Source: Amoebophrya sp. A120 (Eukaryota; Protista; Dinoflagellata). Taken from it: a stretch of DNA of 64,000 bases. The notes under the pieces are model-generated. The model had not been told where the DNA came from. It saw nothing but the letters and a program-made list of their open reading frames with translations, and did not search any database. Where the stretch lies: assembly GCA_905178155.1 (NCBI GenBank), contig CAJINV010000001.1, positions 11,280,640 through 11,344,639 on the forward strand, in the 5' to 3' direction. The position numbers and the translations under genes are program-made. Shown one piece after another: positions 27,633 through 63,468 of this stretch; position 1 is the first letter of the stretch, and each line of letters starts with the position of its first letter.

Positions 27633-29305
27633 ATGGCTCCAATCGACGACAGCGGGCCTTCCAACCTCTGGGAAGCGTCCGGAGAGGGGGATCAAAAGGC
27701 GGTGAGCGTCTTTCTGCAGTCCGGTAAGTACACACCGATCTCCATCGACCAGAATGGCTATTGCCCGATGATGGCCTGCATCTCGTGGGGGCAAATCAAA
27801 TTTTTCGACTGGTTGTGCTCTGTGTTGGAAAATACCACGATCGCGGGCTTGGAGAAAATGATCGAAACCGAGGAACTGATGCTTCGCCGACAATCGCTCG
27901 GGGAGCAGGATGATCCCTATGATAAAAGCCAGGACAGTACCTTGTTTCAAGAGCAGGAGGAAGGAGCGGAAGCGGAAGACACTGCAGGAGCTCCTGCTAA
28001 GACCAGTAGTATTAATCTCGCGAGCAGCAGGACGAAAAACGCCGAGGACGATTCTGATTCGTACATGCAGGACGTAGAAGTTTCCGAATTCGCACAACAA
28101 GATGAACTACACAATGACGACAGTATGATGGTCGACGAGAGTGCGGACGGGAACGCAGCGGCAGAGCACAGCAGTTCGTCGTCCTCCGCTTCGCTTTCCA
28201 ATGACGTCGCAGCAAGCGCTGGTGGAAGCACTTCCAGGAGCGCGAATTCAGCACACCCCTCTACTTCTGCATCAACGGCAGCTGCACCATCGGCAGGAAA
28301 GAACGCTAGCAACATTGAGAACGACGGTGTAGTTCTTGCGGAAGGGTCTTTTACGGAAAATGACGACCCGGAAAAGTACTTGGAATACCTGAAAAATATT
28401 GATGCCCACACAATCGAGGAATATCGGGGCTTCGTACTCACGCTTGCGCGGCTCCGACAGCTACTCATGAAGGAACAACAGCGGGTCAAAACGGAACAAA
28501 CAGACTCAAAGTCAAATTCTTGCGCAACTACGGAACGACCCCAAGGAAAGGCAGACGAGAACGCCAAGCAAGGAATTATGCTTGATTTCAGCAAGCACAA
28601 CCTCTCAAAATCCGGGCAGTTCTCCATCGTGGAAATCGCGTTGCAGGCTACCGACAACGAAGGCGACACCCCGTACCACCACTTCGCGACCAGTCTGTCA
28701 GACGTGCAGCCACCGAACGCCCGTCAGATGCTATCCAAGAAAAAAACTGTGTTAGTGTAACTTTCTTCGGCTGACAGCATCACAAATTTGCTCTGCATGA
28801 CAGAGAAAACCTGTCATGCGTGGCTTGTAAGGGAGAATACACACGAAAAAAGGACTTCATGGCTGTGTGGCATGACAGGTGTAACTCTGTTGCATGTTTT
28901 GCATTACAGAGTTACACTTACACAGTTTTTTTCTTGCATAGATGCTGGTGGAAAGGTTCAAGAAGTACAACTGCAGTCCGGAAACCAAGAATTTAGGTAC
29001 GATGCTATTTCTCCTACTTTAAACAATCAATATCAAATTAAAAACAAGAAAGTGCTGTGACTCTGATAGTACGTAACAAAGGCGAAATAAGCGAACGAAC
29101 CGTCTTGCATGCCCTTCAACAAAAAAAAATTCTCACAGAGTGCCAAACCGCCTTCGACATGGTGCTCGAGCATGACTTCGAAGAGGCGGAGTGGTTTTTC
29201 CAGGTCCACGGCAAGGAGGCGCCGGATGAGCTGCCCGAGGAAGGAGGCCTGGATGCCGGTGACGGCGGCGACTTCGGTTACGGGGACGGCTACGACGAGG
29301 AATAG
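27633..29305 (+). CDS. Ankyrin-repeat protein with long acidic/Ser-rich insertion
   Basis: Ankyrin motifs LWEASGEGDQKAV..DQNGYCPMMACISWG, ATDNEGDTPYH and KNLECQTAFDM. The model needs removal of TIR element 28732-28940 plus one TSD, and one GT-AG intron. Confidence 0.75.
28732..28940. mobile_element. TIR introner (209 bp), TSD GATGC
   Basis: Left end tatccaagaaaaaaactgtgttagtgtaact matches the right-end reverse complement tatgcaagaaaaaaactgtgtaagtgtaact. GATGC at 28727-28731 and 28941-28945. GCATGACA motifs inside. Confidence 0.85.
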
Positions 29306-30562
29306 TACTTTTTATTTCTACGCATGCTCTGCATTTCATTCAACAGAGGACGCAGCTGTTGTATTCCAAACGAGTTACAGGCTAGAATGAGTCTGTACGC
29401 CGCTGCGCCGGCATCAAACATCGTTAAGAGATCCTCATCCTCGAACAAGCATAGAAATGAATCGAATTTCTCATCCTTGATTTGCTTTCGTCGATGAGAA
29501 CTCAATTACATTTTCCTTCAATCGAACCGAAAAGAACAAGAAGAACCCAACGAAATCCAAATCGAAATGAACAGCGATAGTGAAGGGGAGTTTGGAGACG
29601 GCAATGTGCAACTGGAATAGGAGAACATGAACAAGACATGGAATAAATGCTGTTGTACTTGTATCAGTGACGTTTTTCGTCTTCGCAGAAGAAAAAACTT
29701 CGCGTGAGGACTACACCAGTGCCACCTGCAAGTAAGTACAACTACACGCCCCCGAAAGGATGAAAGCGACACACGGTGATGGAATGCTGTAAGCAGATCT
29801 TGGAGTTGGAGATCTGAGTGTGAGTTTGAGTGCTCACGCGCAGCATTATACCAGCGGCCTGTCTTGTCTACACGACAGAGGAACGCATGCCATAGTAGAA
29901 AAGCTCTGCAGCCATTGTACATGTAAATCCGTCACGAAGTACCACAGTGCGACATCATTGTGCTCGCGCACGCCATCAAGGTCAAAGGGCAAAAAGCACC
30001 TCGCGACTCAGATGAATGCAAATAATACTAGACGCATCAATTGATTAAGCGCACCACGAATAAACGAAGCTGCATGTTGATGATGTAGTACGCCGCCATC
30101 TTCACCTTCTACAAAGACTAGAAGTAGCACGGTAAGCATTCGTGGCGTACTTGTATCAGCGACAGAAAACGATTGTTCCCGTGAAGTCGCTCTTTCTTTC
30201 TGTTTTTGTTATCTGCAGCTCTTAATGGCCTCAGTCTGCGTTTGAGTTTGTTCTTCACGTAAGGACTTCTTCCGTGGTTGTTGTTCTCTTTCTCTTCCTG
30301 GTTCTCTATTGAAATGTCCTGTCGAGAGAACCGCATGCTATGGTGCAGCACCAGCTCCAGCTGCAAAACTTCAACCTGAACGTGGAGACACGCCGAAGCA
30401 ATGTGAGAGAGGGTGCGACTACTCAATGATAAAAAACGTGTGTGATAAGAACTTCTTGATGTGACACCACTACCCCCACGTCAACATCCACTACAGTTGT
30501 TATTTCGCTGTGCGTTAAAGTGGAAATAACGTGCAACATCCTCGCCCTCTTCCTCGTTGATC

Positions 30563-40184: not shown

Positions 40185-41594
40185 GCTCGAGATGAAACAT
40201 AAGCCAAGAGCTCCAATGAAACACATGAACATCCTAGGCGCGCATCTATGCACGACAAGAAAAAAAAAAGAAAACATTCGAGGGTGCTTCGAAGAAGCAC
40301 GCTGAAGCCGAAGCGTTCGGTGACAGGCGCTAGTTGCAATTCTCTGCACCAATCTACTGACCACATGATGACGTGTTCTACGCACGACGCATATAATAAC
40401 AATGAAAGAAAATTATAGATCTTATTCTTGGCTTCGAAATTCTTCAATGACTGATATGAATCGGCAAGCATTATTTGCAAAATCGTTTTTTTTTCTTTTT
40501 GAAAATTTTCATAAAAAAATGGCTTTGGTCCTCCATGTGACACATTTGACAGTTGTTCTCTCGTCTCTTTTTTTTGTTGTGAGTGTCTCAATCGTTTTCG
40601 TTGATGTTATTCTATTCGAGAAAACAAGACCCACATTGTATCTTTTCATCGAGAATTGAAAATCAAATGGATTTGATGTTCGAAACATCTATGGCATGTT
40701 GATAAATCTCTTATTCTTCTCAAATATTCAAAATTTCAGATTCCACGATCTGGATTGATGAAGGTGGAAGAATTTTTATAGGAATTATCCGAGGTTGAAT
40801 TTGGAAGAATTATCATAGACTGAATTTTTATAGCAATAATCTAGTGGAATTGATGGAAGATCGGAGATGAAGAAATACAGAATATGATGGATATCTTTTG
40901 GGTCTTGAATATTTGATGGTGTGTCCGGGTATGGAAAGAAAGAAAGATGGAAGATAATCTGGTTTGAATATTTCTTTCATCAAAAATTATTGAGACAATG
41001 AGATTGGATTCGAGATTTTATGGAAATCAAATTTTGACATTCGAGATGAAATTGAAAAAAAAACCATCATAAAAAAATAAATGAAATCCATGTTGATTCT
41101 TCAGAATATTATACAAAAAAAAAATTTCGAAATACATAGGATAATCCTCGGATTCTGATTTTCGAAAAATTTTTAGAAAAAATCAAAAAATTTTCAATGA
41201 TTCTCGGGAAATCTTTTGCATAAGAAAAACCCACAATCCCATCATCATGAAATAAATTTTCGAAATGAAATCGAGAAAATATTCATATTCCAGGATCAAT
41301 CCAGATCTTCTAATTTGAAGAAATTTCGAAAAATCTGAATTCCATCACCTTTTTTTTTTTTTTTCCATCAATCTGATTTTTTTTTTTCCTTTAATTTCTG
41401 ACCCATCCAATTCTTCATCCGATCGAATGATGAGATATCGGAGATTTTTGAAATGGAAATGGATCGAATGATATTATATCGAATGACCGATCATTCGATA
41501 TCTATGATTGATATGAATCGATTGATATACCCAACATGATAGATAATTCGAAGAATTAAAAATATCTATCCATAATCTTGGATCCTAAACAGAT

Positions 41595-42296
41595 TATGTT
41601 AGGGAAAACTGTCCCCACTACCCCGGTTTTCCCCAAAGAGAAAAAATTTTCACGCACTGGCGCAACCCCACGATGCCCGGCTTCGCGACCTGCCCGGACG
41701 GCATCCACCTGCGGCTCTCCTAGGAGGATAATCCCCGAGGTTGATATGCAAGTTAAGAAGTTAATTAGCTAGTGGCGCACAAAAACTAAAACATTATTTT
41801 TTGACAGATTAAATTGCATTCATGTTTGTAGTTATGTCGGCTTTTTCCGGGTTTGCGGTACGGCGGCGAAGCTTAACTGCATCACCTGGGCCTGCTTGAT
41901 CGCGGACACGTTGCTGGAGAAGATTCTGCTGCTCTGTTACCTCGTCCGCGGTAACAGTTCTACACGAGGTTCATGGAGATCGGACCCGGAGACCGTCGCC
42001 ATGCTGGTCTGCCCGAGGGGATGGTCGACAAGCTGGGCCCGGAAGCCGGAGCGTGGAGGCCTTTCTCAAATGAAATAGATACTGATGCAAGATCTGCAAA
42101 TATAGTTAATGTGCGCCACTAGCTAATTAATTTCTTTCATTCCATAAAGCAGCCCACCGGGAGGATCTGGCTTCGCGTCTCGGCTGTTCGCGGAGTAGGT
42201 CGGCTATGCAGGGCTCCTTCTGGTCGCCCTTGGATCGAAAAAAAAATTTTCTCTTTGGGGAAAACCGGGGTAGTGGGGACAATTTTCCCTAACATA
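41595..42296. mobile_element. 702-bp dyad-symmetric TIR element with three co-axial inverted-repeat boxes; TSD CAGAT
   Basis: Inverted-repeat pairs: 41595-41644/42247-42296 (49/50), 41755-41788/42103-42136 (31/34) and 41934-41941/41950-41957 (8/8). All coordinate pairs sum to 83891. CAGAT at 41590-41594 and 42297-42301. Confidence 0.85.
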
Positions 42297-42337
42297 CAGA
42301 TATTTCTCAGAATATGAAACACATATAAATCCATTGA

Positions 42338-42465
42338 TTCTGAAATTTTTTGAATTTCAAATTTTCTGAATCTGAAAATCTCTGAGAAGATTGTGAAATT
42401 CTCTGAATCTGAAAATCTTTGAGAATCCGAAATTCCCTGAGCCTGAATCTGAATGAATCTGAATC
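42338..42465. repeat. Degenerate tandem repeat (~35-37 bp unit built of TCTGAA/CTGAAT)
   Basis: Successive copies: aaattttctgaatctgaaaatctctgagaa, aaattctctgaatctgaaaatctttgagaa, aaattccctgagcctgaatctgaa. Confidence 0.7.
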
Positions 42466-42800
42466 ATGATGTTGTTCGATCATGAAGATTGATCCTCAAA
42501 TTCGACCTTATTATGCAAAAATTTATCCGGAAACAATTACAGATGAAGCAAGTGAATTCATTTGAAGGGTTCATGTCGAAGTAAAAACGTCATAATCTTA
42601 TCCAAATTGCAGATGATAATTTTATGTGAAACCACAACCAGGTCGTTGGTGGATGAAGTTGAGACAACAACATCGCTATACCATTAGAAGCATGAGTTAG
42701 AGCTAGCAACAAACCATTTAGTCTTTTGTGACTTAGCGATTGCAATTCATTTAGAGTTGTAGCCCTTAATCTTACAGCGGTGCACATCCAGCATTTTCGT

Positions 42801-45800: not shown

Positions 45801-46675
45801 CGCACGGAAAACGAGCACGAATCGTGGTTCCGATCACCACTATCATACTTGCTCCTGGCGCTATCGCAAGGCAAAGCGCGGTGGCCTTCATGTACGAACG
45901 GGGAGGCGGAGGGGCACGAGGAAACGTCGCTTGAAGTGCCAGGGGCGGGAGACGGTGAGTGCAGAAAGGGAACCGCACCGGCGCAGGCCGTCGGGTCTGG
46001 TGAGATTCCCAAAAGAGTAGGAGGAGGAACTGTTGCTGTTGATTGTTGATGTGTATGCTGGTGACTCGCTTGCTCCCCAGATAGCTGCTTCTTGGTGTAG
46101 TTCATAGGATCTTTACTAGGCGGGGCCTTGTAGTTGTGCTTCAAAAAAATTTTCTCCACAACGGACGGCTGGTTTCGTCGAATATTATGTGCGCCTTCAG
46201 TAGCGTCCTCTTCTTCATTTTGTCCAGCACCGCCAAAATAACCGGGCTCATCATGATGATGATCGCGGCCACCCAGCAAACTACCGTGGTCGAGCATGCG
46301 GCCGTCGCCAGCACTTGTGGTTCTCGTTTTCGTCTTCAGCTGGTGCGCGGAATTTCCGTCCGGCCCACCGAGGATTAAATCTAGGGTCGCCTTCCGCATG
46401 GCTTCCATTCTCGTTCGGTTATTTGGGGTCTGCGTCGGGTCGTGGCGTGCCACATCATCGGGATGCGGCGGCGGCAGTCGAGCTGCACGCAGACCCCGGG
46501 TGTCGTACACCGTCTTGCGGAGGCGCGTCGGGTGTGTCGTCATGACAACTTTTTCTCCACTTTGCCCTGTTAGCTTCTTGCTGCAATCACAAGCAGAATC
46601 AGCTGGCGTCAACAAAGAAACAAGCAGGCAACCGCGTGCGAAACTACGGGTTACGTCGAAGACATTCTTGGCCAA
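42801..46675 (-). CDS. Large coiled-coil protein with Ser-rich N-terminal region; ends approximate
   Basis: 831-aa and 464-aa ORFs with E/K/R/Q/L heptad composition, joined by a GT-AG intron at ~44092-44272. Confidence 0.7.
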
Positions 46676-47732
46676 AGGCAGCTGCTACAGGAGCGCTGAC
46701 CCAGTATCGAGTTCCTATTGTATTCTTGTCGGCGGTGCCGAATATTTTTATCGAGGGTCGTGCTTTGATGATGTCCCCCACCCCCTGTCGCCTTTGCCTT
46801 TTGCAGGCAAGCACAGGAGCCACAGACGCACCACACGGACACCCTCACCCACCTCAACACTCTCTTCCAATACTCAATGAGAAGTTGATGCCCTCCTCGC
46901 AATAAATCCACGATCGCTCGACGTGCAAATTTTTACTTGAGACGACCGGTTCTTTTGCTCAACATGGTGACCTCCCCAATGACAACATCAATGATTGATG
47001 TCTCAACGTTTGTTTTTCTAATGGGTCGCCGCTCGTCGCAATGAGTGTCGGCGAAAATAAATAAAATAGTTTCTTTTATTTGGTATCCGACAGGAGCAAG
47101 TTAGTGGCAACTTTGAATTTTACGTATCTATGATCTTTATCCAAAAGCATAAGCATAAACCATATTCGTGTCGTTCATAAAAAATTCCTCAATCATCTTC
47201 GTCCATCAAACTGAAACAAATTGCATATCTTCATGTGGAACGAACTTGCACGAGCACGAGACTGCAGGAGTGTAATTTCATCTCTATTGAGTTTCTGTTC
47301 ATTTGTTTTAGGTGAAACAACAACCGACCTACCAATCGCTTGATGTCCGCGACAACAAGTTGTAGGCATAGGCAAAGAACTGTATAAAATCTTAATTTTG
47401 GAGTGCAAGGAAAGCACCTATACAAGATTGGAAATTTTTGGCACTAGGTGCGGTATTTACCCCGACCTCCACCACGGCGGCATTTTCATACAATTTCGAA
47501 GGGAGTTTGAAGATACGCGGTGAAATGACAGTCGATAGTGAAAGTGAAACTTAACTAAATCATATAAGAACTCACCTCTGCTGCAGTAGCACAATTAAAT
47601 GAGGGTGATGCTTCTCTGATGGGATAGAAGGACCAGTGACTAGCTACAAATCTTACAGAGCCCACGGCTTTTGGTTTCTAATGTTCGGAGTATCGCAACA
47701 GATCGGTGTATCGCAACTCGCCCCAGGATCGA

Positions 47733-50700
47733 TCAACTACGGCTGCGTCCCCAGGCGGACGATGCAGTTCGAAACAGGTTTTCGAGGCAGTCTTTGCTGG
47801 GACAGCAGACAGGAAACCGCTGCGCTGCTCCAGCACTAAAGCCGGCCCGGCTGTTTGGCGCAAAGGTTTTGTTGGCCGCATTGGTCGGCGTGGTCGCGAA
47901 GGACCCTCCACGAGCAACGGACTTCGTGCTCCCTTTGCTGTTCGTATGGGTGTGTCAGGATTGAAATCGTCAAAGTTGAAATAATTTGGAATGCATAAAA
48001 TGCATGACCCAAGATACGTGTCTTGCAGAGCAGGCAAGTGAGGCCGATTGTGAGCCTGTTTCCGGTTACAGCTCGAGCTGCTAAAGTAGCATGAGAAAAT
48101 CGCTCTTCTTTGCCTAAACAGCATGACAGACTGGATTTGGGGACCGCCGACATTTGTCATGCGCCACTTGGAAACTGGGTTCCAACTGGCATCCATTTTA
48201 TGCATGGCAAATTATTTCAACTTTGTCGATTTCAATTCTGACACTCCCATAGTTCATCTGGCCCCCGTAATACGCCGCCTCGTCGTCGGAAGAAGTGGTT
48301 TCGGACTCCTCGTCGCTGAAGGAGGACGAGGAATCGGAAGACAGACTGTCAGAGGACGAAGTAACGTCTTCGTCATCGCCGGCCGTGCTCTTCTGGGAGG
48401 ACGAGTTATTGTTCGCGTTCCGCCGGAAGAACTCGGCGCCGTTCTCGCGGTACTTCCGGCGCGTCCCCGGGGAGAGGTTTTGCGTTTCCGAGTTTTCCCG
48501 TAACCGCTTGGCCCGGTCGTGCAGGGGAAGCAGGCTCCGGCTATCCTGGGACATCACACGGCGCAACCACCGCTCGGACGAACGGATCCGCCTGGAGTAA
48601 CAAGTTAGTTGCAAGAGTATAGCTGAAAAAGAACAAGCAGCCTTAGATCTCATGGCATCTGGCAGAAGCGCAACAAGACGATTCAGAAGTTTTTAATGCA
48701 GCAGATTGACAGAGTACGTACGTGTGTTATTTCGCATAGGAATCAATAGATGCTGATGCAGATTGACAACATGACGCACAATCTTCAATGCCGAATTGTA
48801 CCTCGTCGGCAGGTAGTCTACCGCTCCGCCGATTTTGACGCCCTTCCCTTCGATCGGGTCTTTCGAGCTTGCGCGGGGGAAGCGAAACACGCTTTCCTGG
48901 CGCGGGCTACGCTTGCGCGCGGCGCCTAGGTCTTGTTCGCGGCTTCCCGTCAGGCGAGTAGCTCCTCCAGTGGCGAAATTATTGGTTGACAACCCTGGGG
49001 GACCCGCATGATTTGCCAGGTAGTTGTTCGGCGTCCTTCCGCGCCGGCGACCCAGAGCTGGATTCAGATGGTTCGTGCAGACCGAGGAGTCGTAGCTGGC
49101 GGACCGGTTGTTTTTCGAACTGACCGCGCTCCGGACAAAAGCAGGATGGAGCAGAGTCGAGTTTGCTGGAAAGTAACCACCTCCAGCCATAGTACTCATG
49201 CCTGTCGCTGCAGCGGAAGCCAGGTCGGAAGAACCCGCAGCTGCACCTGAGGCGGCGAGTAGCTGCTGCAACGTAGTCGAACCAGTGATGCCGGAAATGT
49301 TGGCGCTCGTACTGCTGGAGGAAGATGGGTCGGCTCTTGATGATAAAGCATGTTCATCTTCTACCGGCTTTCCTCCACTAGAAGTACCGGGCTGCTGCAG
49401 CGTATCTTCTACCTCTACGTTTTGGCTTTGCAGCAGCTCCACCGTCTGCTTAGAATTGGTTTTGGACGAATGGGATGACGAGGAAAAGACAGATGAACTT
49501 GCGTTGTTTGTTATCCTATTTAAAAACGTCCTCACCCTATAGTTGTAATGCAAATCTACATGCTGAAAATGTTTCTCATACGGAGCCCCATGAGAAGCAG
49601 TTTCTAGTCGTGTTCTGCAATTTGTCATGCTCCAATCAGCATGGTGTGCTAGGTCTGTGATGCTGCTGAGCTACCTCAAACAGCACTACACTACGAGTCC
49701 AAATTTGTGATGCAAAACAGCCAAAACTTGTGGATTTGTCTAGCCGATTCCTCATCTTAACTATGGTGTGGGGACATTTTTACTCAGGATATTTGTTCCT
49801 TGCAGGTCGTAAGTAGCAGCTCCACCGCGCACCTGCAGGTCGCACGACTGGGTCAGCGGTTCCTTGGACGTTTGACTGTGGGGCACCAGTGTGGTTTTGC
49901 TGCTAGTGCCGGAGGACGGGCCGGTCGCAGTCGAAGCCGCGGCCACTCCCGAAGCACTTGAGAAGAAATTTAGATTATCAGTCACGCTGATTCCAGACGT
50001 TGGCTTCTCGCGAGATGACGAAGAACTCGCTCCTCCAGCGATGTCTTTAAAGCTGAAAGAAGCTGGCGCGTAATTAGAACCTATGTCGTGTTTAGGATGT
50101 CAAGAGTATATAAGCTGTAAGTGTTGAGAGCCGATTTATTTGACGCATCGGAATAGAGGTTGCGTTGAGGTAGGTTGCAGAATATCACCATCAATTTGCT
50201 CCCAAATCGATGGAGTTGAAGACCAAAGCAGAATTTCCTTTGCCATGCAAACAAAGAAACAAATCCTCACCTGTTCCTGTATATGGTTTCTGGTTTTGCT
50301 GTGCCGGATTGGAGTAGACCGTCGCGACTGACGCGGTTGGGGATTCGTTCCCTAGGTTAGAAATCTCGTCGATCCCACGGCTGCGCATTTTACCTGACAA
50401 GTAAAGGTAATAAATTAGTTCTTCTACGTTGCTCTTTTATCATCATTAACTCGTGCTAGTGCGTCAGCGTGCGCCGTCGGAGACCGAGGCGCCGACGAGA
50501 TGAATTAGCAAAAAAAAGAGGTTATACGTATGCAGTTTCAGTGGTACACAGAGTACATCGCACTAATTTTCTCTTTGGCAATACTTTTGATTCCGCTGGT
50601 GGCGTAGGAGGGATTTTTTAAAACGCCACGGGACGTCGACGACGAGGCTAGAGCGCCTGGGCCTGATGCATCGATTCTCAGTTGTTTTTCACAAAGTTTT

Positions 50701-51251
50701 TCTGTTTGATATTTTAGAGCATCGCCCTCGCCTTGTTCGCCTTGGGCTAGCTTCAGCTTCGTGATTCCCTGACCGCTTCCTTTCCCAGTCCCGATTGCGC
50801 TGCTCTTCAGGTGTTTGGTCGGCGAGCGCGAGGAAAAGTCGCCGGCATGAAGCTCGTAATCTCGTCCGCGCCGCCTGGCCACGCCGATGCTGGCATCGCT
50901 CATCATTCCCGGGTTTCGCCACAGCACGTCGCTTTCGGCTCCGTAAATCGATTCATCTGAGGACGAGGAATCAACGTCGCTGCTGTCATCCACCTCCTCA
51001 TCGTCGCTCTCCATCTTTTTCCGCCTGGTGTCCTCCGCACCACGATAACCTTTGTTCTTCCACACTGGGCCACGGGATGTATTCAGATTTACGGGAACCA
51101 TATCAACAGCGACTGAGGGCAGGTTACCTGTCGCTGTCGGACGGCTAGGAGAGGTCGATGTTTCAGCAGCAACTTTCCCAGCCGATGGAGGAGAAAGATT
51201 ATCCTCCTCTTCTACAGCAACAGGAAACACATCACTGCTGTTCTTCGTCAT
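47733..51251 (-). CDS. Multi-exon Ser-rich hypothetical protein interrupted by two TIR introners; start approximate
   Basis: A chain of minus-strand ORFs is joined by GT-AG introns and by removal of elements 49512-49791 and 47945-48251. In-frame TGA at 47733-47735. Confidence 0.55.
47945..48251. mobile_element. TIR introner/MITE (307 bp), TSD GTTCG/GTTCA
   Basis: ~57-bp imperfect TIR tatgggtgtgtcaggattgaaatcgtcaaagttgaaataatt...aattatttcaactttgtcgatttcaattctgacactcccata. A homologous copy lies at 52615-53949. Confidence 0.88.
49512..49791. mobile_element. TIR introner (280 bp), TSD TTTGT
   Basis: Left end tatcctatttaaaaacgtcctcaccctatagtt versus right-end reverse complement tatcctgagtaaaaatgtccccacaccatagtt. 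TTTGT at 49507-49511 and 49792-49796. TGTCATGC inside. Confidence 0.82.
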
Positions 51252-52180
51252 TCTTTTTTTTCCCGTTGGTTTACTTCCACCTTTGCGTGGAGTGTGGGAC
51301 GAAAAATATCAATTCCAGTTGGCTTGATAAATCTTAATCCCGTTCCTTGCGAGGGCTAGATGAAGATTGTACTAATGTCAAAAATTTGCATCCTGCAGTG
51401 GTTGATGCTTGATCTTCTTCGTGCAAGATTTCCTCGTGCAGGATTGACGGTCTTAGTCGTGCTACTGCTAGCAAGCAATCCGAGAAACTGCGCGCCGATC
51501 GAGATTCAACACTGCTTAACCAGCGAAAACGAAGAGCGACGAAACGAGGAGGAAAACCGATACCGAAAAATTATGTTTATTCTCGATGTCCAACGACTTC
51601 TACGACTGATGACTATGTAGTCCTGATCGCAGGAGGACAAACACCAAGAAGCATATTCCATATTCATGTGTAAAAGGAATCAACATATAATGAAATCGAA
51701 GAGCTAGTACAACAACTTCCGGTTCCGCTCAATAACTCTGTTCAATCTCACGTAAACAGCCACGAAGATGAACATTTCTACCAACTACCGTAATTCACCG
51801 CGGTGTAGCGAGTACGGCGGAACAAAATACGATGTGCAACTGCGGAACCCTTCTTGACCCTGTGCCTGTCCATGCCTTGTTACTTCGTCTAGTTACCACC
51901 TAGAAAAAAGCAGCTTCATCCTCGTTACGCCCTTCCCGCGCCTTCCTCTACATACCAACTTCCTCCACAATTTGGAGGCAATGCGTACAGTCGACGAACT
52001 CGAATGGTGCAGCAGGAGGCGAAACAAGGTCGTGAAGAGTCGGTACATGTTCAGGAGCTTCATCAGTAGCAACAAGCAGGCATGATCACTGATCATCCAG
52101 CAACATGTTGATGTTGATCCGACTGCTGCAATCATCAGATGTTGAAAGCAGGTGGTCCTGAAGACCGACACGAAAGACGT

Positions 52181-55100
52181 TTAGGTCTGAAACTTCCCTT
52201 CTGGCTCTGTGTAGAAGCCGAATCCCATATCAAAAGGAAAAATCCCCCCTCCCCATATCGAAACGAAGTTTCTGATGCTGGATTTCCATACACAAATCAG
52301 ATTTGTCTTGCAGTAGAGGAGTGCAGGCCGCATATGCCAAGCCTCAGTCGAGAGGCTTTGACGTTGGCGCCTAGCATGACAAACGTGTATGCTCTAAGCC
52401 AAACAGCATGACAAACCGCCTGCAAAATGCGGAAGGCTTTCTGGACTTGCCTTCTTGCAAGACAGACAGGATTTGAGGTCACAAATGCGCATCACAAATT
52501 TTCAGACGGAAACGCTTTCGATATGGGGTGGGGGGATTTTTCCTTTTGATATCCCATTTGAAAGCCGTACTCCTCCCCGATCTCCACGGGTTTGTTTAGC
52601 GGGTGGCTGTCGGATATGGGGGTGTCAGGATTGAAATCGTCAAAGTTGAAAGAATTTGCCATGCATAAAATGGATGCCATTTGAAGCCCAGTTTCCAAGT
52701 GGCGCATGACACAAACAGACTGTGCTACTGCGGGCGAGACATTGTGTATCAGGTGAATTTTTTTTTGGCTTGAGTCCCCCCCTCGCCCCCTCGATCTCGG
52801 ATGTGCGTGTACCAAAACAAGTCATCAGACTTGGAGATACGATCATAACAAACCTATGCACGAGCACGGAGGCTGCGGAGTCGCATGGAAAACAAAAGAC
52901 TCTGAGCGGGTAACAACGCACATGCGCGACCGACGGAAACAAGAAGAAAGAAGCAAGAAGATATGTAAGGAGGGACGAAGGCCTCCCCCCCGAAGGGTTG
53001 GAAAAGATAGCGAAGATGGACAGGAGGAAAAGCCTGTACACATACGTAAAAATAAGGATGGCATAGCAGAATAGAAAAGCGGGAGAGAAGGCCCATGAAA
53101 TAGGAAGTAAGTAACAAAATAGCACAGCAGCCGGGAAAAAAAGCACGACCAGCTGGGATCCGGGGTGAAGGCCGGAAAATTGATAGACCAGCGAAATGTA
53201 AAAGTAGAGATGAAAAGGCGAACGAGGGGCGAAGGCCTCGAGAGCAAGGACTAGGTAAACGGCATGCTGTGGCGCAAAGACAGTTTGAATAAGCGCGCGA
53301 CTACGCACAGGTTACGACAGTAAAAATCATAAGTGTGATAAGGGATAAATGCAGAAAGAAACTAATTACAATGGAAATCCATGCAGCAAGAGGTAGACAT
53401 ACATCGTAGCACAGTCTGAGTAATGACGTCATGCAGCAACCAGGGACCACGGCGGCAACCCGGGCCCTACGGACCTGGCACTCCCAACTATACTCCTCAC
53501 ACAAAACGCCACCAATACAACTGTAGGACATAGCCAACCACCCCGGAGCACCTACACCAGCAACGGGGGCGGAAACGGCGCAGCCCACTTCGCCTTCCTA
53601 TCTGGCAGAGCACAGACCACCAGCACACTTTGAAAACTGGCAGCTATTTTTCTTTGCCACGTTCACTATGGCAATACCTTGGCAGGGACGCACGCACAAC
53701 AGCACGCGCCCCATGCAGAGAAGGCGCATGACAAATTTGGGCAGAGCCTAAATCCAGTTGGTCATGCTGTTTGGGTAAGGGCGACGCCAACGCCTTTTGT
53801 CATGCTACTTTAGCAGCTCTATTTCTAGCCCTCAAAAGGCTTACAATCTGCCTCCCTTGCGTCCTCTGCAATAGAGGCACTTCATGCCTTGCAGTTTATG
53901 CATGAGAAATTATTTCAACTTTGACGATTTCAATCCTGACGCTTCCATATCGGAGAGTTTGACGAGCGGTAACTCGTCCTGGACCCGCTCTCCGTCCACG
54001 ATTCCGGTGTTCTCCGTGGTATCCGCCACGAGGCCGTAGAACTCCCCGAGTCCCGTGGGACCGTTACCCATCATGTCGGTGGCGCGGTCGATCACGCGCG
54101 CCAGGTAGAGGACGACCAGAACGATCACAACGGTAGTGGCCACGTACATGGTAAACACCTGCAGCCCTGCCGCCTTGTCCGCCTCTCGACTGGGATAGCG
54201 GGTCCATTTCTCCAGTGCGGTCTGGGCGTCGTTGGAAACGAACGGAGAGCCAAAGACGGCGGAGGCCATCACGTTATAGGGGTACACCGCACAGACGCCC
54301 AGAAAACTGCAGTCCCAGATGAAAACGGCTAGCCGCAGGCCCAGCAGCAAAAACGCCCCCGTGCGAACCGACTTCAGCTTGCCTGCTGAATTGTCCAGCC
54401 CCGCAAGAATGCCAACGAATCCGGCGCCCGTGGCTACGACGGCCTGTCAGTTTATTTCTTTCTTTTTTCGGTTGGTAGTCCTAGTCGCACTTGCTGCAAC
54501 TGATAGATATGTATTGACTTTCCCCCTGAGAATTCATTCATTCATTCACGCAAGCGATTATCCTTGTTGGAGAGAGTTTCGCCATCGCCTTCTCATGCGC
54601 ATCGTTTTCTCTCGGATGTGCTTACAAGTGTATCTTTTTTATTTTTCCTATACAGGTGTGTCTTTTTTCCCCCTGAGAATTTCAAGTACAACGAACCGAA
54701 CAAGAGCTAGTAGAATCGAATGTCCATGTTGCAACTTCGACAAGTATTTTTAGATTTCGCAAATCCTGATGGAATCGCACCACACTCACGATGCAAAAAA
54801 GCGAAAGAGTAAGAATTTAGGTGAATTTAAAGCTTTAGCAGTACGTCCACACTGATCCGCAGGTAATAGGACCATTTTTGCACCGCGTCGCAACTGATGG
54901 GCGATTGTGCAATGCCCGCGGCAGTCGTTGCTGGCTCTGTTTTCAAGTATCCGAAGGTCTTGTAGGAATACACAGTCCACAAGCAAAGCTGTCCCAAGCC
55001 GGCAACGAACAATACATACGTATCCAAGCAAAATCATTTTGTTCGAATAAAGCCACTGGACTGTCTGCAGCTGCTCCCTGTTGAGTTGTATTTAAAGACA

Positions 55101-55253
55101 GAGAGCAGGGGGCAACAAATGACAAAAGGAGAAAAAACAAACATGTTGTCTGAAGTCATGATTTTGCTCACGATACAGCGAGAGAAAGCTGATGCCAGCT
55201 TTTGCGGGAACGCATCCACAACAGGTGCCATATTTCATTGTAAAAAAAGCCAT
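52181..55253 (-). CDS. Alveolate-type multi-pass membrane protein (possibly GAP40-related) interrupted by two TIR introners
   Basis: N-terminus MAFFTMKYGTCCGCVPAKAGISFLSLY and several TM helices. The C-terminus ...KLSDSHPLNKPVEIGEEYGFQMGFGFYTEPEGKFQT* reads through only after removing both elements. The GAP40 resemblance is from memory and unverified. Confidence 0.6.
52228..52551. mobile_element. TIR introner (324 bp), TSD TCCCA
   Basis: TIR tatcaaaaggaaaaatcccccctccccatatcgaaa / tttcgatatggggtggggggatttttccttttgata. TCCCA at 52223-52227 and 52552-52556. Two GCATGACAAA motifs. Confidence 0.88.
52615..53949. mobile_element. TIR introner (1335 bp) of the 47945 family with a nested ~1 kb insertion; TSD TCGGA
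   Basis: TIR containing gtcaggattgaaatcgtcaaagttgaaa at both ends. TCGGA at 52610-52614 and 53950-53954. The internal sequence is the reverse complement of the 47945 copy. Confidence 0.88.
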
Positions 55254-56539
55254 GGCGATTGTACTGCTGGGTGCTGGATTGGTATCTTTGCTCTCACATT
55301 CCTTCTACATAGTCGCTACACCATTTCCATTCCGCGCCACCGCTGCAGCGACGGACAATAAGACGACGGCTATGGCTTGCGCAGAACAAACACAGAAGAC
55401 TGGTCTTGAAAATGAAAAGGAGAAGCGCTACGCAGGAGACTTTTCCGTCATGAAGATTGGCAGCAACGACGACCAAGAAACATATTCATATGTGGTGTGG
55501 TGCCCCCCGCGCTCGTCTCTTACTTTTGGTCTAAACTCGCTCTTGTTTTCTTGGGTCACACAGCGTCACGCTCTCGATTTCTATCTCTCTATTCAAATAG
55601 TTCCACGCGGACCACTGTTAACCCGCATTCGGAAAACGGCACTCTGCCGAGATGATTTTCCGCCGCACTCTAAATCCCCGCGGGATTGCCCATTGGCGTA
55701 CACCTACATACACAACTCAGATGGAAGCCACATAAAGTATTCTCGCGAAAGAGGAATGAAGCAAGAGGAGGTCATCTGGCCGCCCTGTGTATCTGCAAAC
55801 TTTTTTATTTTCTCCGTCGTGTACCTACCGCAGCTGGGGCGAGCTACATTGTTTACATTTCCATTTTTGCGTCAACTCACGTGTCGTCTTTGTCGTGTGC
55901 AGTTCAGAATCATGATGAATACTAGTGATGTAGTGAAAGTGGAAGTGTTTGTGGAGGGAGGAAGGACGGAGATGTACTAGGGGTCAGAAAATATACATTT
56001 TTTGCCCGTCCAGCTCCAGAGACATCACTTAGCAAAACCTTTCATTCTTTCTTCATCTACAACATTCCGAACGGATTTGCATGCTTTTTAAGGTCGTAGT
56101 TGTTCTTCATCCTCAACATACTCATAGCTAGGAAGACTACTTATTTTTGGAATTTCCCCTCGTAGTCGTAATCGCGTGTTGCTCGATGCCAGTCTGGACG
56201 CCGGATCTGCTGCAGCTCCGGCTGCCTGGGGGTAGAATACTGCAGACTTCTCTCGTAAATGACATCGAAGGTCGTGAAAGTCGCACTGCGAAGGGGTGGG
56301 TCGTCGTGGTCGCTTTTCTTTTATTTCTTCCATGTCTTCTTCTAGTTCTGGCTGTGCTACTGGTCGGCATCACAGGGGCCGCGCTCGATCCATCTAGCAT
56401 CTATTCCTGATGCGCCGGCGGCGTGACAGAACTCCTTCTTTCGCATCACGGCCAAGCAAACGTCTGGCTCGTCTTCGTCGTCGGGGTTGACAACCTGGTC
56501 GCTAGAAGTGGGAGTCAAGGACAAGGTCATGCTTCAGCT

Positions 56540-57538
56540 TCATGCCGCTGCTCCCGTTCCCACCGTTTCTGTCCTAATTTGCTCTCTCCAGGTATCGAAG
56601 ATGTGTTGCGCGCGTTCGCTGATCTCTTTATCCTTACGCTGGATCACCGGGTTGTCGGCCCAGTACCGAATCTCCCGCGCCAGGCCGGTCTTGGACAGCA
56701 TGTCCTTCGTATACTTCGTCTTCTCGAGCTGGTTAAATATGCTTTCCACCTCGGTTCGTTCGAACCGGCCCAAGTTCCCCGTATACTCCACCCACATGTT
56801 CATCAAGTGATCGCCATCACAGTCGTCCTCCAGAAATTCGTTGCCCTGAAGGTCTCTGCGGTTCCGCGAGGCTCCCTTCTCCGTCAGCTTGAGCCCGATG
56901 CTCACCATGGAGCCGGGTTTGGCAAGCGCGCATTTTTTCTGGTCGTCGGCGCCAGGCATAATCCGCAGTCCGTCGATGCTGGTGCCGTTCGTGCTCCGGT
57001 CCTCGATAACGAGCATTTCCGGATAGTTCAGGCTCTCAGAGACCAGCATCTGTTCGTTGCTCACTTTCAGATTGTTCCGTGCCATCTTTCGGGTATACGC
57101 ATGCTTTCCGCTGCCACCTTGTTTTTTGGAAGAAGGTATAATGGAATTTTCATTTTTCTGTCGCTACCCGGCCATAGGGTAGAGCGTACTAGTAGTACTA
57201 CATTAATTTATTCTCGACCTCTTTTTCTGATGAGACGAGGATCTATTCTATAACTATAATCACAGCGAAGGACATCACAATATTATTATTAATATTTTTG
57301 AGCGTCACGCTTCTGCATTTTTCGAGGATCGAGACCAAGTTCATCATTATCTTCAGCTGCGACTGTTTATATTTTGTATCTACTCTCATACATCATTGAA
57401 GTCGTGAGAAACAAGAAGTTCCGATGCCGGGCCTCTTCAAAAAACACATAGGTCAATACCGTTTTTGCTCCTGCCGGGGACGACCATAGCATCCAGAACG
57501 TGGGGGTGGTAGGGGATCAGCACGAATTTTGCGCCCAT
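56540..57538 (-). CDS. FHA-domain plus TFIIS N-terminal (Med26/IWS1-type) domain protein; 3' end uncertain
   Basis: FHA motifs VPGRS, SGKHA and IEDRSTNGTSIDG..GSMVSIG, followed by the TFIIS-N-like LEKTKYTKDMLSKTGLAREIR...AQHIFDTWREQI. Confidence 0.7.
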
Positions 57539-58447
57539 GATCCTTGCCCGCAGTCGACAAAGCTTGACTGTTATGTCATTATTGCGTTTTTTCTTTCGTA
57601 TCGCTTCCTTGTCCGTCATCCGCCGCATCTCGCGAGCACGCTGGTTGTTCTGCTGCTTGTGCTGTATTCGAATTTGTTGGAGACGATTATAGAAGCGGAC
57701 AGTACTACACGCGCAGCAATCACAAAAGCCGACTTGGAACATCTTCGCTTCATCTTCGACTAAAAACAGTATGTGTAGTTAGAAAGTGAATTTATCAGTT
57801 TTCCGTTCATAGAAACAAATCAAGCAGCAGCTGCAGGTATGGTACCCGCTCTTCGTCTCTGTCCAGTTCGCGTTCCTCCTCATCTTCGTTCCGAAATTAT
57901 CCGAACCAAATTCGCGAGAGTCGCATCTTCGTCGTCGTGTACGTGAACGTCTACTTTGCGTTTAACGTCTTAAGTGACAACAACCAAAGATTGCACTACA
58001 AAGATGCATGTGAATCCAGATCATGCCAACATTAAATCATACGTACCTATCTTTTTTAGTATTTATTTTGTCCCGGCACTGTGACCGTGACCGTGTTCCT
58101 CGGCCTCGTTTTGTATTCAATCGCACGAACGGATGTTGATCTTCGAGCATGAATCAACAGCGCATGTTGTTCACGAACGGTACTGGAGGAGACCAGAAAT
58201 AATGCAAAGAAGAATGGGATGAAAAATACACCCTAGGCACCAGTAGTGTTAGAGTGCAACACTCCACTTGCGACCCTATCATGATTTTGCGCATCGTGAT
58301 GCAAATAGTGTGTGACACAAGCAGCAGAACAAGCATAACTCAATGTGTACACGTAGTAGACCTTAGGTTGTGGCTGCAGGCTAAAGAGGTGCTGAGCTGA
58401 GGTAGACGACCACGACGACAAATGCGGCGCCATGATGGAACTCCAAT

Positions 58448-59858
58448 TCATATTGGTCCGGGTCGTTTGTACTCGTCCCGCAGGTTGGACTCGTCACGTC
58501 GCTGGTACCCCGGGATTCCCGAGTTGTAATTATTCCTCGTGTTATAGTTTGAAGTACTGCTACTACTGGCAGGGTTTCCACCCGCTTTGCTCGCATGCTG
58601 ATCCTGATGGGCGTTTTTCGTACCGGGCCCGCTTGTGCTGGACGCTGCTGCGCCCATGGCTTCTTCCCTGGTTCGCTTTCTCGCCCGAAAGAGCGGGTTG
58701 TCGTACCCCGCTCGTGTGGAAGGATTCCCGAACACGTTAGTTGACTCCGCCTTTGCATTCCACCTGTGAAATAAATCAAAATGAATTTTTACCATGACGA
58801 AGGGAAAAATTGACGATATGCTGACGCCGGACAAGATGACGAGCAGGCGCCGTGTCAACATTTCATCTGATGATGATGCAATGCATTCAACAAATGAAGT
58901 AAAAACGAGCCCGACGCGGACGATTGATCAATTTTGAGAAGTCATGACACTTTCACAACGATAGAGTTTCTTTTCTACCTTCCATGCCCTCGCGCGCCCA
59001 TGGCGCTCATCCCGGTGTGGTTTGCTTTCGGCGGGGGTGGAGGACGAGGCGGGTTGGTACTACTTGGCATGCGAGGGTGGTGCACGCCAACTGGCGGCTC
59101 GGGCTCCGAGCCGGAAGAGGCTTGAGGTACGTACATCGGATTGTAGCCGCGGGGGCGGCCGGCGTAGGGATCCCGTTCCGCGTAATTCTCTTTGTTCGCG
59201 TAATAGTTGAAGAAGCTGGAGCTGGCGCTGCCGCTCGCCGTCGAGTGGGTGTGTGAGGTTATCAAAGGGAAGGACTCTTGGACTAGCATATTCAACGACG
59301 TCTTTATTTTGTTGGCAGCCAGAAAAGAAACAAACAAACTCGACCAGGACCAATCCATGCTACTGCAAGATGAGAGTTATGTACTTATTTTCTTCGTACG
59401 TGTGATGTTGCATGTGTCATCACGGAAGGTATCTCAATCTCGCATCGTGAAGCAATTCAGTATATAAATAAAATAAAAATTCCAGGAGCAGCCTACATGC
59501 AAATTATCCGTCTGAATCTGAAAGTGTATGCTCATGCTAGCCCAGGTACAAAACACTTCTATGGGATAGAGAAGTTGTGGTGATGGTAGGCACCTCCTCC
59601 TCCCGCGGTAGGCGTCGTGCCGCTGGATTTGCCGCCCTCCATGGTCCAGCCCCATACCTTGTGCTCCTGCTGGATCTTCTCATAATTGGCCTGAATATCG
59701 GCGAACTTTTGGTTCGCCTTTTCCTGCGATATCGGATCCTTCGCCGCCTTGTCAGGGTGGTGCTGGAGGCAGAGCTGCTTGTAGATCTTGCGGGCCCGCG
59801 CCGGGCTCAGGGAACGGGAGATCCCTAACGCCTGGAACGGATCGGCGTCGTACTCCAT
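58448..59858 (-). CDS. DnaJ/Hsp40 J-domain protein (type C) with low-complexity C-terminus; 3' end approximate
   Basis: DPFQALGI...YKQLCLQHHPDK...FADIQANYEKI, including the HPD motif. Confidence 0.85.
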
Positions 59859-61187
59859 CTTTAACTTTCTTGCTGACACAGAGACAGATAATTGGAAATA
59901 GGGTATGAGCACAAATAAATCAATGCTATATCCTTTTTGTGAATCTGAATCTGTAAACTACAATCGACTCTACTCGTCGCATCATTTAGGGCCTAAATTT
60001 GAGGCATTGAAGTATTACTAAATCATGAGGACATGGACATCGGGTCTTCAAAAAAAAACGAACGAAGGAGAGACAAAGAAAGTTGAAGTTGTGAGCAAAA
60101 ATATCGCAAAAAAAGATGAGGGCGGCGCGACCTCTGTAGAGAAATTTCTATTGTTAGATGATCTCTTTCTTTTAGCTTTACACCATGCTGAACGTTGAGC
60201 GGCAATTGGAACTATTACTAACTATAACTAAGTCAGCACCCGGCGGTGCTGAAATCATCTCCCTGCCAGACAGTTTGTAGATAAAGATCGAGATAATTGA
60301 TTTATCAACTTCAACGTAAGTACCTAAGTGACTGAACCTGAGTTACAAATCGCTTGGAAAATATCCAAAACGTGCGAGTGGTGCGTAGCGGGATACCTAA
60401 TGTTAATTCGTGGCGGGCTAGTGAATACTCGCCCATTCTTGATCGTCGTTCATCAATCGCACAGGAAGAGCTGGTTACTAGATAGACTAGATCGTATCTT
60501 TTCAAGCGATTATTCATCTACTTGCTGGAGCTGTGTGGCGCATATACCTAGTACTAGTTCAACTTCAATCAGACTGACATAGAAATAAGCGTGGGTGTGG
60601 GTGTGCATCGTCGGTGCAAATATATTAACGGCACATAACACGTTTTAGCTTCAGTTGTGAGTATGAGAGTCGACGTTTCTTACAGTCATGACCTCCATTT
60701 CAGCATAAGCGCTTATTGCAACAGAGGCAGCCGCTGGAACAGCAACTGCAGACACAGGGAAGTAGACGATCTTCCTCCTGAGAATTACCGGAAGAGAGCA
60801 GATCGTGAGAAACGTTCTTCATGTGGCGCTATCCATATTCTTCGTTTTTACCTATTTTCCTTCAACTTCTTGATGCTTGTTTGTCTCAAGGTTTCTTTCT
60901 GATTCTGCTGTCGAAGATCATTCGCGCTCGGCCTCAAAGGCTGCTTGTAGCTTCATCATCTCCATTCCAACCCTAACCGACGCCGCAGCAGAGTGAAAGG
61001 ACGGCAAAAGCGATTGAAAAAATCATGGATGAAAATCAAGACTCATAATTCAAAACTCCAATCTGTAGGTTGCAAAGGAAAAATTGCATATGGAAAATTA
61101 ATAGTACCTGTACCGGGATCATGTTAGATTTTGTTGCTGCGGCAGAAATGGATCATCATGGTCATGCTCTACAACTGCTTCAGACCT

Positions 61188-63468
61188 TCACAACTCCACA
61201 ACCAATTTCCCGACGCTAGCGGCGCTGCTGAGCACAGTATGGGCTTCTCGCGCATCCTTCAAAACTGTGACTGGAATGGCTTTGCCGATCACGCCCTTTT
61301 CGACGTAACCCACTATCATGTCGAAGTAGTATTTCAGCACTTCCGTCTCCTTCGCGAAGAAGCTGATTTAAAGGGGAATTTGGCATGCATGCAAACACAA
61401 ATTTGCATGAAAAAGGCAGATTTTTTTTAGGAAAAGTAGCCACTGAAACTGATGAAAATGATTTTGGGATTCCGTATTCCCATGTTGAATCTTTTTCTTT
61501 CATGAAGATTTATCGGTGCGTAAGCGTATTCAAAATCAAATCGTGCTTTCATTACCTCAGATTGAACCCGATAGCGCCCTTACTCGCGACGGTCATATTC
61601 ATGGGGTCAAATCTGGGCATTCCCTGCACCATCTTGTAGAGCATTTTGAGCCACTGCCAGGGACTGAGAAAAGCCGCGGCGCTGGCAGAGGGCACGTTGG
61701 TGTGGAAGCCGTAGATGATAAGTCGCCCCCCCTGTGCCAGGTGGCTGTAGCTTTTCGCCAGCGTTTCCTGTCCGTTCGCGTCGAAAATCGCCTGGAACTC
61801 GTCGTCACCGACGTCATCGCCCCGCGACGGACTGGACATATCTTCTACCACGTTGTAGTCATCGAGTTTCTTGCTCGAGGCCACGACAGCTGCTTTGGCT
61901 TTGCGTTGCTGCCAGAGTTCTGTTTTGAGCACCACGGAGTCGCAAATGCCCATATCCTTTAGGGTTTGAATCTTCTGCGGTCGGCCGACGACACCCACCA
62001 CGGGAGAGCACCCGAACCTCTTGGCGAGCGTGCAGAGCATCGTACCCACGCCACCGGCTGCGCTGTGCACGAGCACACCTGGTTGTCGTTTGTTCAACTT
62101 AAGTTTTTTTTGCAGGGAGCTGCGATCAGTGTGTTTATACATTTCTTTGACAAAATCGTTCGTTTTGTCCTCTGTATGTGTATGGAAGTGAAAAACACGT
62201 TGAGTCGATGTGTTTTTTTTATTTCGAAGTTTGTAACGTCGCGAGTTTAACTTTAATTCATCGATTCGCGGCGTTACTTTGTACTGCTATTCTTTGGCAT
62301 GAGCCATCTTCATCTATGCGCTGCAATCTATAGATACCTTTATTAGTGGTTCGCGGAGCCACGTCGGGTGAGAAGCCAGCGAGGTGCAAAGCGTGCACAG
62401 CGGTGTGACAGACAGCGGGAAGCGCAGCAGCTCTTTCTGGCTCGAGACCTGATACCACGACATGATCATCCAGTTGTAAAGAAATTTTCACACTCGAACC
62501 AGAACGACTACGTTGTGAAGGTGGCATCGCAACAGCAAGAGCAACTTGATGAAGAAGATCGCAAAATAATTCCGGTCAAGCAAGATAGAGAGTCAACGTA
62601 AAGAAATGCGACCAAGTATACCTTTCGGCACCTTACGGAGCTGCCGGACGGGGACTAATACGCGGGAGGAATTATCCTGCGCAAAAGTATCGCACTCGTA
62701 GTAATTGCAGTTATTCTTTCTCAAGTTAAATCCGCATCAGAAATTTCATTTCTGATGCTGAGGAAGTTTGTCATGCGATTTCTACTAGTACGATAGTTTT
62801 GCAATGCATAGGAATACCCGCCGAACAATGTCGCGCCAAACACGCTGTCACCTGGCTTGAAGCCGGCTTTTGTCCCGGCTCGCTCGACGACCCCGGCGAC
62901 ATCGAATCCCGGACAGATTGGCCACCCAACAAATTTATTTGCGGAGTCGTAGAGCCCCCAGCGAATACAGACGTCCGCGTAGTTTACGCTGAAATGGGTA
63001 ACCTGAATGAACAAGGACTTGCGTATACTAGATTAGATGCAACATTACACCAAAAAATATAACAAATAACAAGATGAATTGAAGTAAGTTGCATGTTCTA
63101 CATCTTTATCTACCGCGGTCACCAGTACACCGTCGAAGCATCCGCGAGCAAATGTAAATTGTGTGTGTTCTTGTTCATACCTTGAGTAAGACACAGTCCT
63201 CCGGTAAGGTTTCCGGTATCGTGATCACGGGGCCCGGCGAGAGGGGCGGAAGGTTGTAGCCGATGGTGCACTCGTTTTCCGCCATTTTTCGCTTCCGCAC
63301 CTGGTTGATGCTCCCCGGCCGGTGGATGAGATAACAGTAGTTGTCTTTCTCTGCGATGTCGTCATCCGGCACGGGCTGCCGCTTCAACACTTTCAAATCC
63401 AACCAGTCGTACAAGTTCCAGAGCACAGCATCGAGCTGGAACTTAAACTGCTCGTAGGAATCCCACAT
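61188..63468 (-). CDS. VAT-1-like zinc-independent medium-chain quinone oxidoreductase (MDR family)
   Basis: Motifs SVNYADVCIRWGLY, PGFDVAGVVE, GDSVFGATLFGGYSSRVLVP, VLVHSAAGGVG, IFDANG, GGRLIIYG and SVGKLVVEL*. GT-AG introns plus one TIR introner. Confidence 0.88.
62673..62810. mobile_element. TIR introner (138 bp), TSD GGAAT
   Basis: Left end tatcctgcgcaaaagtatcgcactcgtag versus right-end reverse complement tatgcattgcaaaactatcgtactagtag. GGAAT at 62668-62672 and 62811-62815. TGTCATGC inside. Confidence 0.85.

Follow-up and report, generated by a model that had tools for sequence, protein, structure and literature searches.

How can coding exons be interrupted by hairpin elements whose borders offer no GT-AG pair? 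The question is raised by a 64,000-nt stretch of the genome of the dinoflagellate Amoebophrya sp. A120 (GenBank assembly GCA_905178155.1, contig CAJINV010000001.1, positions 11,280,640 to 11,344,639 of the forward strand), hereafter the window, to which all coordinates refer. A preliminary description of the window had listed six elements that begin with TAT, end with ATA, carry terminal inverted repeats (TIRs) and are flanked by a 5-bp target-site duplication (TSD), and had taken them for non-GT-AG introns resembling the introners of Amoebophrya. The elements are the introner elements published for A120 by Farhat et al. in 2021, a kind already known; identity rather than analogy is indicated by the TAT start, the inverted and direct repeats and the exact agreement of a spliced host protein with a public A120 protein. 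New here are a decayed copy, E8, with fixed cuts and a dispensable direct repeat, and evidence that target site and orientation do not matter.

Transposon-like elements in coding exons

A strict scan of the window (TAT..ATA ends, TIR match of at least 15/20, TSD match of at least 4/5, length 60-3000 nt) returned seven hits, namely the six elements already listed (E1 to E6), at the same positions and with their TIRs and TSDs, and a further one, E7. Among 50 block-Markov shuffles of the 64,000-nt window, 46 gave no hit under the same scan and four gave one; a loose scan (any start, TIR 14/20) was swamped by chance matches. E1 to E6 all start with TAT(C/G) and end with (G/C)ATA, 15-20 of their first 20 nt are matched between the TIRs, and the BLAST arms of E1, E2, E4 and E5 extend over 31-66 nt. 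All six are flanked by a 5-bp repeat, which is imperfect in one (E2, GTTCG/GTTCA). Measured against shuffles, E1-E4, E6 and E7 fold into end-to-end hairpins with z scores of -5.5 to -13.1 (E5 is without a z value). An internal motif, GCAT(G/C)A(C/G)A, has 21 of its 24 window occurrences inside the elements, which span only 3,295 of the 64,000 bases. At the start of the inverted repeat, TAT followed by seven variable nucleotides and at least three A is present in six of the eight window elements; the exception is the family of E2 and E5, which has only the A at position 13, kept in 169 of 178 copies. TIRs, a constant TSD length, the lack of coding capacity and a uniform length within families are the hallmarks of miniature inverted-repeat transposable elements (MITEs) or other non-autonomous TIR transposons, and all of them were found: we take the elements for MITE-like copies of transposons, devoid of coding capacity, that lie in coding exons next to a 5-bp target duplication.

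E1 (28732..28940, 209 bp, TSD GATGC) lies on the plus strand in an ankyrin-repeat gene, and the other genic elements lie in minus-strand hosts. E2 (47945..48251, minus, 307 bp), with its imperfect TSD reading TGAAC upstream and CGAAC downstream in host orientation, shares with E3 (49512..49791, minus, 280 bp, TSD TTTGT) a gene at 47096..51351 (minus) that has three GT-AG introns and, in the best-fitting models, a stop-free frame of 795 codons after splicing. E4 (52228..52551, minus, 324 bp, TSD TCCCA) and E5 (52615..53949, minus, 1335 bp, TSD TCGGA) interrupt, together with E8, a host region at 51800..55425 (minus; left bound arbitrary) with one GT-AG intron (54444-54844) and a 297-codon stop-free frame of no identified family. 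E5 belongs to the E2 family and carries an insert of about 1 kb, and its three internal open reading frames (ORFs) have no Pfam match; E2 and E5 are mutually inverted relative to the host transcripts, and both are removed. E6 (62673..62810, minus, 138 bp, TSD GGAAT) interrupts a conserved part of the gene for a zinc-binding dehydrogenase (VAT-1-like) at 60805..63655 (minus), which contains four GT-AG introns besides. The coexistence of ordinary GT-AG introns with the elements in the same genes, reported earlier, thus holds, and so does the lack of canonical borders: in host orientation and in all six registers that sliding within the TSD allows, GT-AG or GC-AG is available to none of E1-E6 and AT-AG only to E1. 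With E8 included, a GT or GC donor combined with an AG acceptor occurs in none of the seven genic elements in any register.

The properties of the elements as a population were obtained from 59 loci (L001-L059, 314 kb) retrieved with the E2-family repeat, all from one other assembly. The 379 raw TIR pairs were reduced by best pairing and a TSD match of at least 3/5 to 207 elements, of which 206 are top-level, 171 strand-consistent and 108 confidently coding. Perfect repeats of 5 bp flank 134 of the raw pairs, versus 7, 5 and 1 for repeats of 3, 4 and 6 bp, and the TSDs of the 207 elements are perfect in 139, matched at 4/5 in 56 and at 3/5 in 12. Families of 45, 29 and 28 copies are present in the pooled set; the consensus common to both ends is TAT-S with an A at position 13, and the internal motif occurs in 164 of 178 copies, 234 times in sense and 227 times in antisense. 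A stop-free frame of at least 600 nt crosses the junction in 120 of 206 elements when 5 nt are removed with the element and in 98-99 when 3, 4 or 6 nt are, a modest difference. GT-AG or GC-AG is possible in any register for nine of the 108 coding copies; in the same copies the TSD base counts match the flanking composition and the codon phases are distributed 32/39/37, while the two orientations are represented 28/17, 12/14 and 10/16 in the three large families. These distributions are evidence that neither target sequence nor orientation matters.

In L006 of the second assembly an E2-family element (3990-4421) encloses another of 111 bp (4028-4138), which has a perfect 5-bp TSD of its own, one 4,989-nt frame in L011 is interrupted by five elements, and L039 has nine element calls in 8 kb, with exons down to about 45 nt between them. 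The 1126-bp element at 6010-7135 of L031, with a perfect TSD, has a tandem array of palindromic units as its interior and no long ORF. A long ORF on the plus strand in the first 3.6 kb of L033 resembles RNase H on visual inspection and may stem from a retrotransposon.

RNA and DNA contigs and the position of the cuts

Contigs of two runs assumed to be RNA (X1 and X4) were compared with those of a DNA run (X5); contigs drop rare variants, and the joints listed are 15 of 152, with those of E2 and E3 outside these 15. Direct joints in the RNA contigs skip each of three elements together with 5 nt: 52221 is joined to 52551 at E4 (329 nt skipped), 52609 to 53950 at E5 (1340 nt), both at depths of 132 and 21.8 in X1 and X4, and 62666 to 62810 at E6 (143 nt; depths 118.7 and 31.7). 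At E2, contig pieces of X1 and X4 end at 47939 and the record length fits a 312-nt skip; at E3 a piece ends at 49506 and the length fits a skip of 285 nt; in this length arithmetic the remaining gap is filled by exact GT-AG introns. Removal of the element plus 5 nt is thus observed directly at E4, E5 and E6 and by length arithmetic at E2 and E3, as the initial view of the elements as non-GT-AG introns had it. The skips of E4, E5, E6 and E8 share contigs with skips of GT-AG introns.

That deletion of an element with one TSD copy restores the host frame, as the preliminary description had found for all six, is now borne out by RNA for five of them (E2-E6); for E1 (putative intron 28731-28944, CT-TG) it is indicated by translation. 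E4 is close to the end of its ORF, where the longest stop-free stretch is 303 codons with the element kept and 297 with it removed, so that ORF length alone lends no support to its removal. The longest frame of the E6 gene, by comparison, is 307 codons with E6 kept versus 491 with E6 removed, and none of 59 homologs has an indel within 5 residues of the E6 junction. An exon of this dehydrogenase gene has a 99% match to an Amoebophrya sp. A120 protein, and the protein built from the RNA joints without E6 is the public A120 protein P0001 in 444 of 444 residues; the public annotation therefore already treats E6 as an intron.

The joined form is absent from the contigs of the DNA run. X5 yielded no contig with the joined form at any of the four listed element joints (E4, E5, E6 and E8), and its contigs reach into E2, E3 and E6 at either end. 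RNA depth over the unique interior of E5 is 0 and 0.87, versus 132 and 21.8 at its joint. The elements very probably leave at the RNA level. A raw-read RNA run (X7) had no reads on 44100-63900 and is uninformative on splicing. The summed X5 depth over the elements is hundreds of times that of the flanks, a figure that is not a copy number. Joints in X5 that lead from an element end back to an element start were considered as circles and dropped, neighbouring copies giving an identical pattern.

With perfect TSDs the exact position of the cuts within the repeat is invisible, and it is E8 that makes it visible. This decayed copy (55021..55175, minus, 155 bp), absent from the preliminary description, was found via the RNA joints: 55016 is joined to 55177 (160 nt skipped, depths 132 and 21.8). 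Its TSD copies, CGCTG and CGTAT, have diverged, the joint is unable to slide, and of the distinct mRNAs predicted by registers 3, 4 and 5 only that of register 4 matches. The mRNA keeps the upstream TSD copy at positions 1-4 and the downstream copy at position 5; the intron, 55017-55176 (minus, 160 nt), reads G + TAT..ATA + CGTA (GT-TA). Since the copies differ and removal is exact, the upstream cut falls 1 nt ahead of TAT and the downstream cut 4 nt beyond ATA (-1/+4), and since E8 is removed despite its diverged TSD, the direct repeat is dispensable. E8 folds end to end with a z score of -4.0, versus 1.7 to -1.8 for eight GT-AG introns of the window.

E8 likely fixes the border position that the literature had left open, and we infer that -1/+4 is the general register of these elements; no statement of it was found in the open-access literature searched. 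E2 (putative intron 47941-48252) excludes register 0, its mRNA keeping the first base of the upstream TSD copy, and in a coronin gene (L034) keeping the upstream base at position 4 of the TSD yields a Tyr that aligns with a Tyr of the solved coronin 4OZU, in a weak alignment (E 0.16). The AT-AG register of E1 is probably not the one used. In register 4 the donor reads N-TAT, and of the eight GT-AG introns of the window seven start with GTA and four with GTAT. According to Table S4 of Farhat et al. (PMC7789003), T is the second base in all nine predominant A120 splice pairs, which is what the -1/+4 register predicts. In copies with a single TSD mismatch, codon likelihood favours the upstream base in 20 of 27 cases at positions 1-4 and in 0 of 4 at position 5, a suggestive signal that falls short of significance once double mismatches are added. 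Polarisation of the mismatches by mutation spectrum failed, the spectrum being symmetric, and homolog searches to polarise those of the second-assembly loci found nothing.

TSD mismatches in L001-L059, read in host orientation, are rarer at position 5 than at positions 1-4 (6 of 74, p 0.008 versus one fifth), perhaps because the first intron base is constrained or because register 5 is sometimes used. The ends of a GT-AG intron at 63003-63180 (minus) pair over about 10 bp (TATGAACAAG versus CTTGTTCAT) and are accompanied by a TSD-like CAAGG/TCAGG; this intron is possibly an old element turned canonical in the -1/+4 register.

Candidate mechanisms of removal

Our analysis leans towards removal from the pre-mRNA at -1/+4 by a relaxed spliceosome that would be guided by the terminal repeats instead of by GT and AG. 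A cut-and-paste spread by a DDE transposase is inferred from the TIRs, the constant TSD and the strand-symmetric internal motif; such a transposase would bind the repeated motif GCAT(G/C)A(C/G)A and insert the element with a 5-nt staggered cut. The element stays in the DNA, and in the pre-mRNA the hairpin would bring both cut sites together. The spliceosome would read N/UAU as the usual G/UAY donor with the first base free, and would take the acceptor by its distance from the stem. With the same signal at both ends a copy would splice in either orientation, and with 1+4 nt of the duplication leaving with the element the original exon would be restored exactly. This account is favoured by the position of TAT where canonical donors have TAY, by the presence of the machinery and by a tunicate precedent: nearly all spliceosomal proteins and the U2, U4, U5 and U6 small nuclear RNAs (snRNAs) are kept in A120 (PMC7789003), and in a tunicate the spliceosome reportedly excises non-canonical introns derived from transposons (PMC11282704; bioRxiv 10.1101/2025.08.15.670264).

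A number of observations weigh against a relaxed spliceosome working at -1/+4. X1 and X4 are a single sample, are RNA by guess and were examined as contigs, and X5 is a single DNA run, possibly the source of the window itself. The register was read from one element, E8, a decayed copy that happens to start with GT and that BLAST matches to none of the element set, with a TSD match of 2/5 and a TIR score of 22, barely over that of one GT-AG intron (20). Codon-based polarisation that includes double mismatches favours the upstream copy in 23 of 38 cases at positions 1-4 (p 0.26) and in 1 of 5 at position 5 (Fisher p 0.15), neither significant; a looser set gives 39 of 68 and 1 of 6 (p 0.088). 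A stop-codon test of the register was split, with L054 for and L041 against, and the registers of Table S4 are aligner-dependent. Any base may come first in the donor (GT 49, AT 48, CT 42 and TT 32 of 171), and the acceptor has no conserved base, all 16 dinucleotides being seen and AG in 8 of 171; both features are far from the known spliceosomal rules, and the spliceosome would have to unwind a long stem. One small family is oriented 7/0 (p 0.016, uncorrected). The autonomous transposase with the same ends that the preliminary description had envisaged did not appear among the 207 elements in 314 kb of second-assembly loci, where ORFs in the four elements of more than 450 nt do not exceed 116 codons.

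The lack of a conserved terminal base at either cut, together with the symmetric ends, the occurrence of both orientations and the end-to-end hairpins, stronger than those of GT-AG introns, would suit a spliceosome-independent endonuclease and ligase that recognises the base of the TAT..ATA helix and cuts the RNA at -1 and +4, as is suspected for euglenid introns; we entertain this tentatively. In euglenid introns the overhang is asymmetric in a like manner and release is circular (PMC11282704), and U1 snRNA went undetected in A120, which points the same way (PMC7789003). On the other hand, TAT falls exactly at the TAY position of canonical donors, which a structure-only nuclease would not need, the introner-type repeat layout is found in 15% of canonical A120 introns as well (PMC7789003), and no candidate nuclease was identified. 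The broader proposition, that mRNA in A120 is also spliced by a second system, independent of the spliceosome, which takes its measure from the base of the TAT..ATA helix and cuts at -1/+4 whatever the bases, we consider doubtful. If true, any transposon insertion with a 5-bp TSD would become a perfect intron, whatever its orientation or codon phase, and this tens of thousands of times per genome. The second, geometry-guided pathway postulated in the preliminary description has thus fared unevenly: the fixed geometry stands and is sharpened by E8 to -1/+4, but a separate pathway stays conjectural, a relaxed spliceosome fitting equally or better.

Precise excision from the DNA is known from the internal eliminated sequences (IES) of ciliates, and an excision of this kind in some life stage, with one repeat copy left behind, had also been proposed for the window. 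Where the TSDs are perfect, such excision would leave the same product, and X5 is a single run whose contigs lose rare variants, yet the lack of any joined contig at the four listed joints in X5, the X5 contigs that enter E2, E3 and E6 from both sides, and the chimaeric TSD product that E8 leaves without a usable repeat make it very improbable. Least credible of all is reverse-transcriptase template switching with no true splicing, for which hairpins bounded by direct repeats are the usual setting and contigs of presumably cDNA-derived runs the evidence at hand, but which is contradicted by the E8 junction, where the needed repeat is missing, by the near absence of the E5 interior from RNA contigs and by the broken conserved protein that retention of E6 would entail. 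E8 argues in the same way against repeat-guided excision from DNA.

Removal by a relaxed spliceosome and by a new RNA cutting and joining pathway would alike matter for the origin of introns from transposons, the former implying a spliceosome with no terminal-base requirement. The fixed -1/+4 register, if general, reduces dozens of apparent splice-site pairs to one rule, would allow the correction of A120 gene models where TSD copies differ, and gives the exact predicted ends of the excised RNA.

Further features of the window and comparison with known systems

E7 (41595..42296, 702 bp, 56-nt TIR, TSD CAGAT) has no evident host frame and lies in an AT-rich region (40400-42800, GC 37-41%) between convergent gene blocks. 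It encloses an inner TAT..ATA hairpin (41745-42146) with arms of 34-44 nt and no target duplication, and the region has further inverted repeats at 40584-40997 and 40735-41319 and a 37-nt direct repeat near 42352-42425. The insert of E5 (52712-53722, about 1 kb) is A-rich on the plus strand and has a second, diverged copy in X5. Elsewhere in the window, at 8072-11554, 12514-18741, 22377-23540 and 59559-59957, are two very long ORFs that match nothing in Pfam, a gene for an OTU protease and an exon with a DnaJ domain. An Rfam search of the window returned no families, and a search with the TIR pattern no viral contigs.

Among DNA transposons, IS3EU/GingerRoot elements have TA..TA termini like those of the window elements and a TSD of usually 6 bp (PMC10045372), versus 5 bp here (one perfect 6-bp repeat versus 134 of 5 bp among the 379 pairs); because of this difference no superfamily is assigned. 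In the 22 of 58 A120 rows covered from Gozashti et al. 2025 (PMC12130899), most families are classed as TIR DNA elements whose superfamily is unknown. Lengths lie around 106, 150, 255, 278 and 305 bp, as they do in our families, and about half of the sites are non-canonical; the TSDs called automatically in that study range from 2 to 5 nt, and the rows covered give no fixed register. Family 38 of that study has Copia/Gypsy-like ORFs, and nothing alike was found here.

The introns of the tunicate Fritillaria borealis are likewise MITE-derived, with TIRs and TSDs, and are removed despite non-GT-AG ends; they prefer the ends AG-AC and AG-AT and have a target preference, neither of which is seen here (PMC11282704; bioRxiv 10.1101/2025.08.15.670264). 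The nonconventional introns of euglenids share the transposon-like nature, a TIR stem joining the ends, TSD-like repeats, the lack of GT-AG and a longer unpaired 3' tail, and are released as circles (PMC11282704). They have a CAG/CTG stem at +4..6 and -8..-6 and pyrimidine-purine junctions; the elements described here have TAT at +2..4 and ATA at -7..-5 and no junction preference, so that the euglenid stem and junction pattern is not theirs.

The closest match is that with the A120 introners of Farhat et al. (PMC7789003), which occur as 29,850 copies in 1,954 families, have an inverted repeat that starts with TAT, seven variable bases and a run of at least three A, and direct repeats of 3-5 nt that overlap the exon-intron borders, given as 5 bp in the legend of Fig. 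S19. They have RNA-supported non-canonical borders and no internal transposase; no transposase was found in A120 either, and the position of the introner borders is stated there to be unknown. Host organism, TAT start, inverted repeats, direct repeats, families and RNA-level non-GT-AG removal all agree with the window elements. Direct repeats are variable and inverted repeats 8-20 nt long in the published account, whereas the window elements have a constant 5-bp repeat and inverted repeats of up to 31-66 nt, and to the published description, whose accessible text mentions neither, the present one adds the -1/+4 cut and the shared internal motif.

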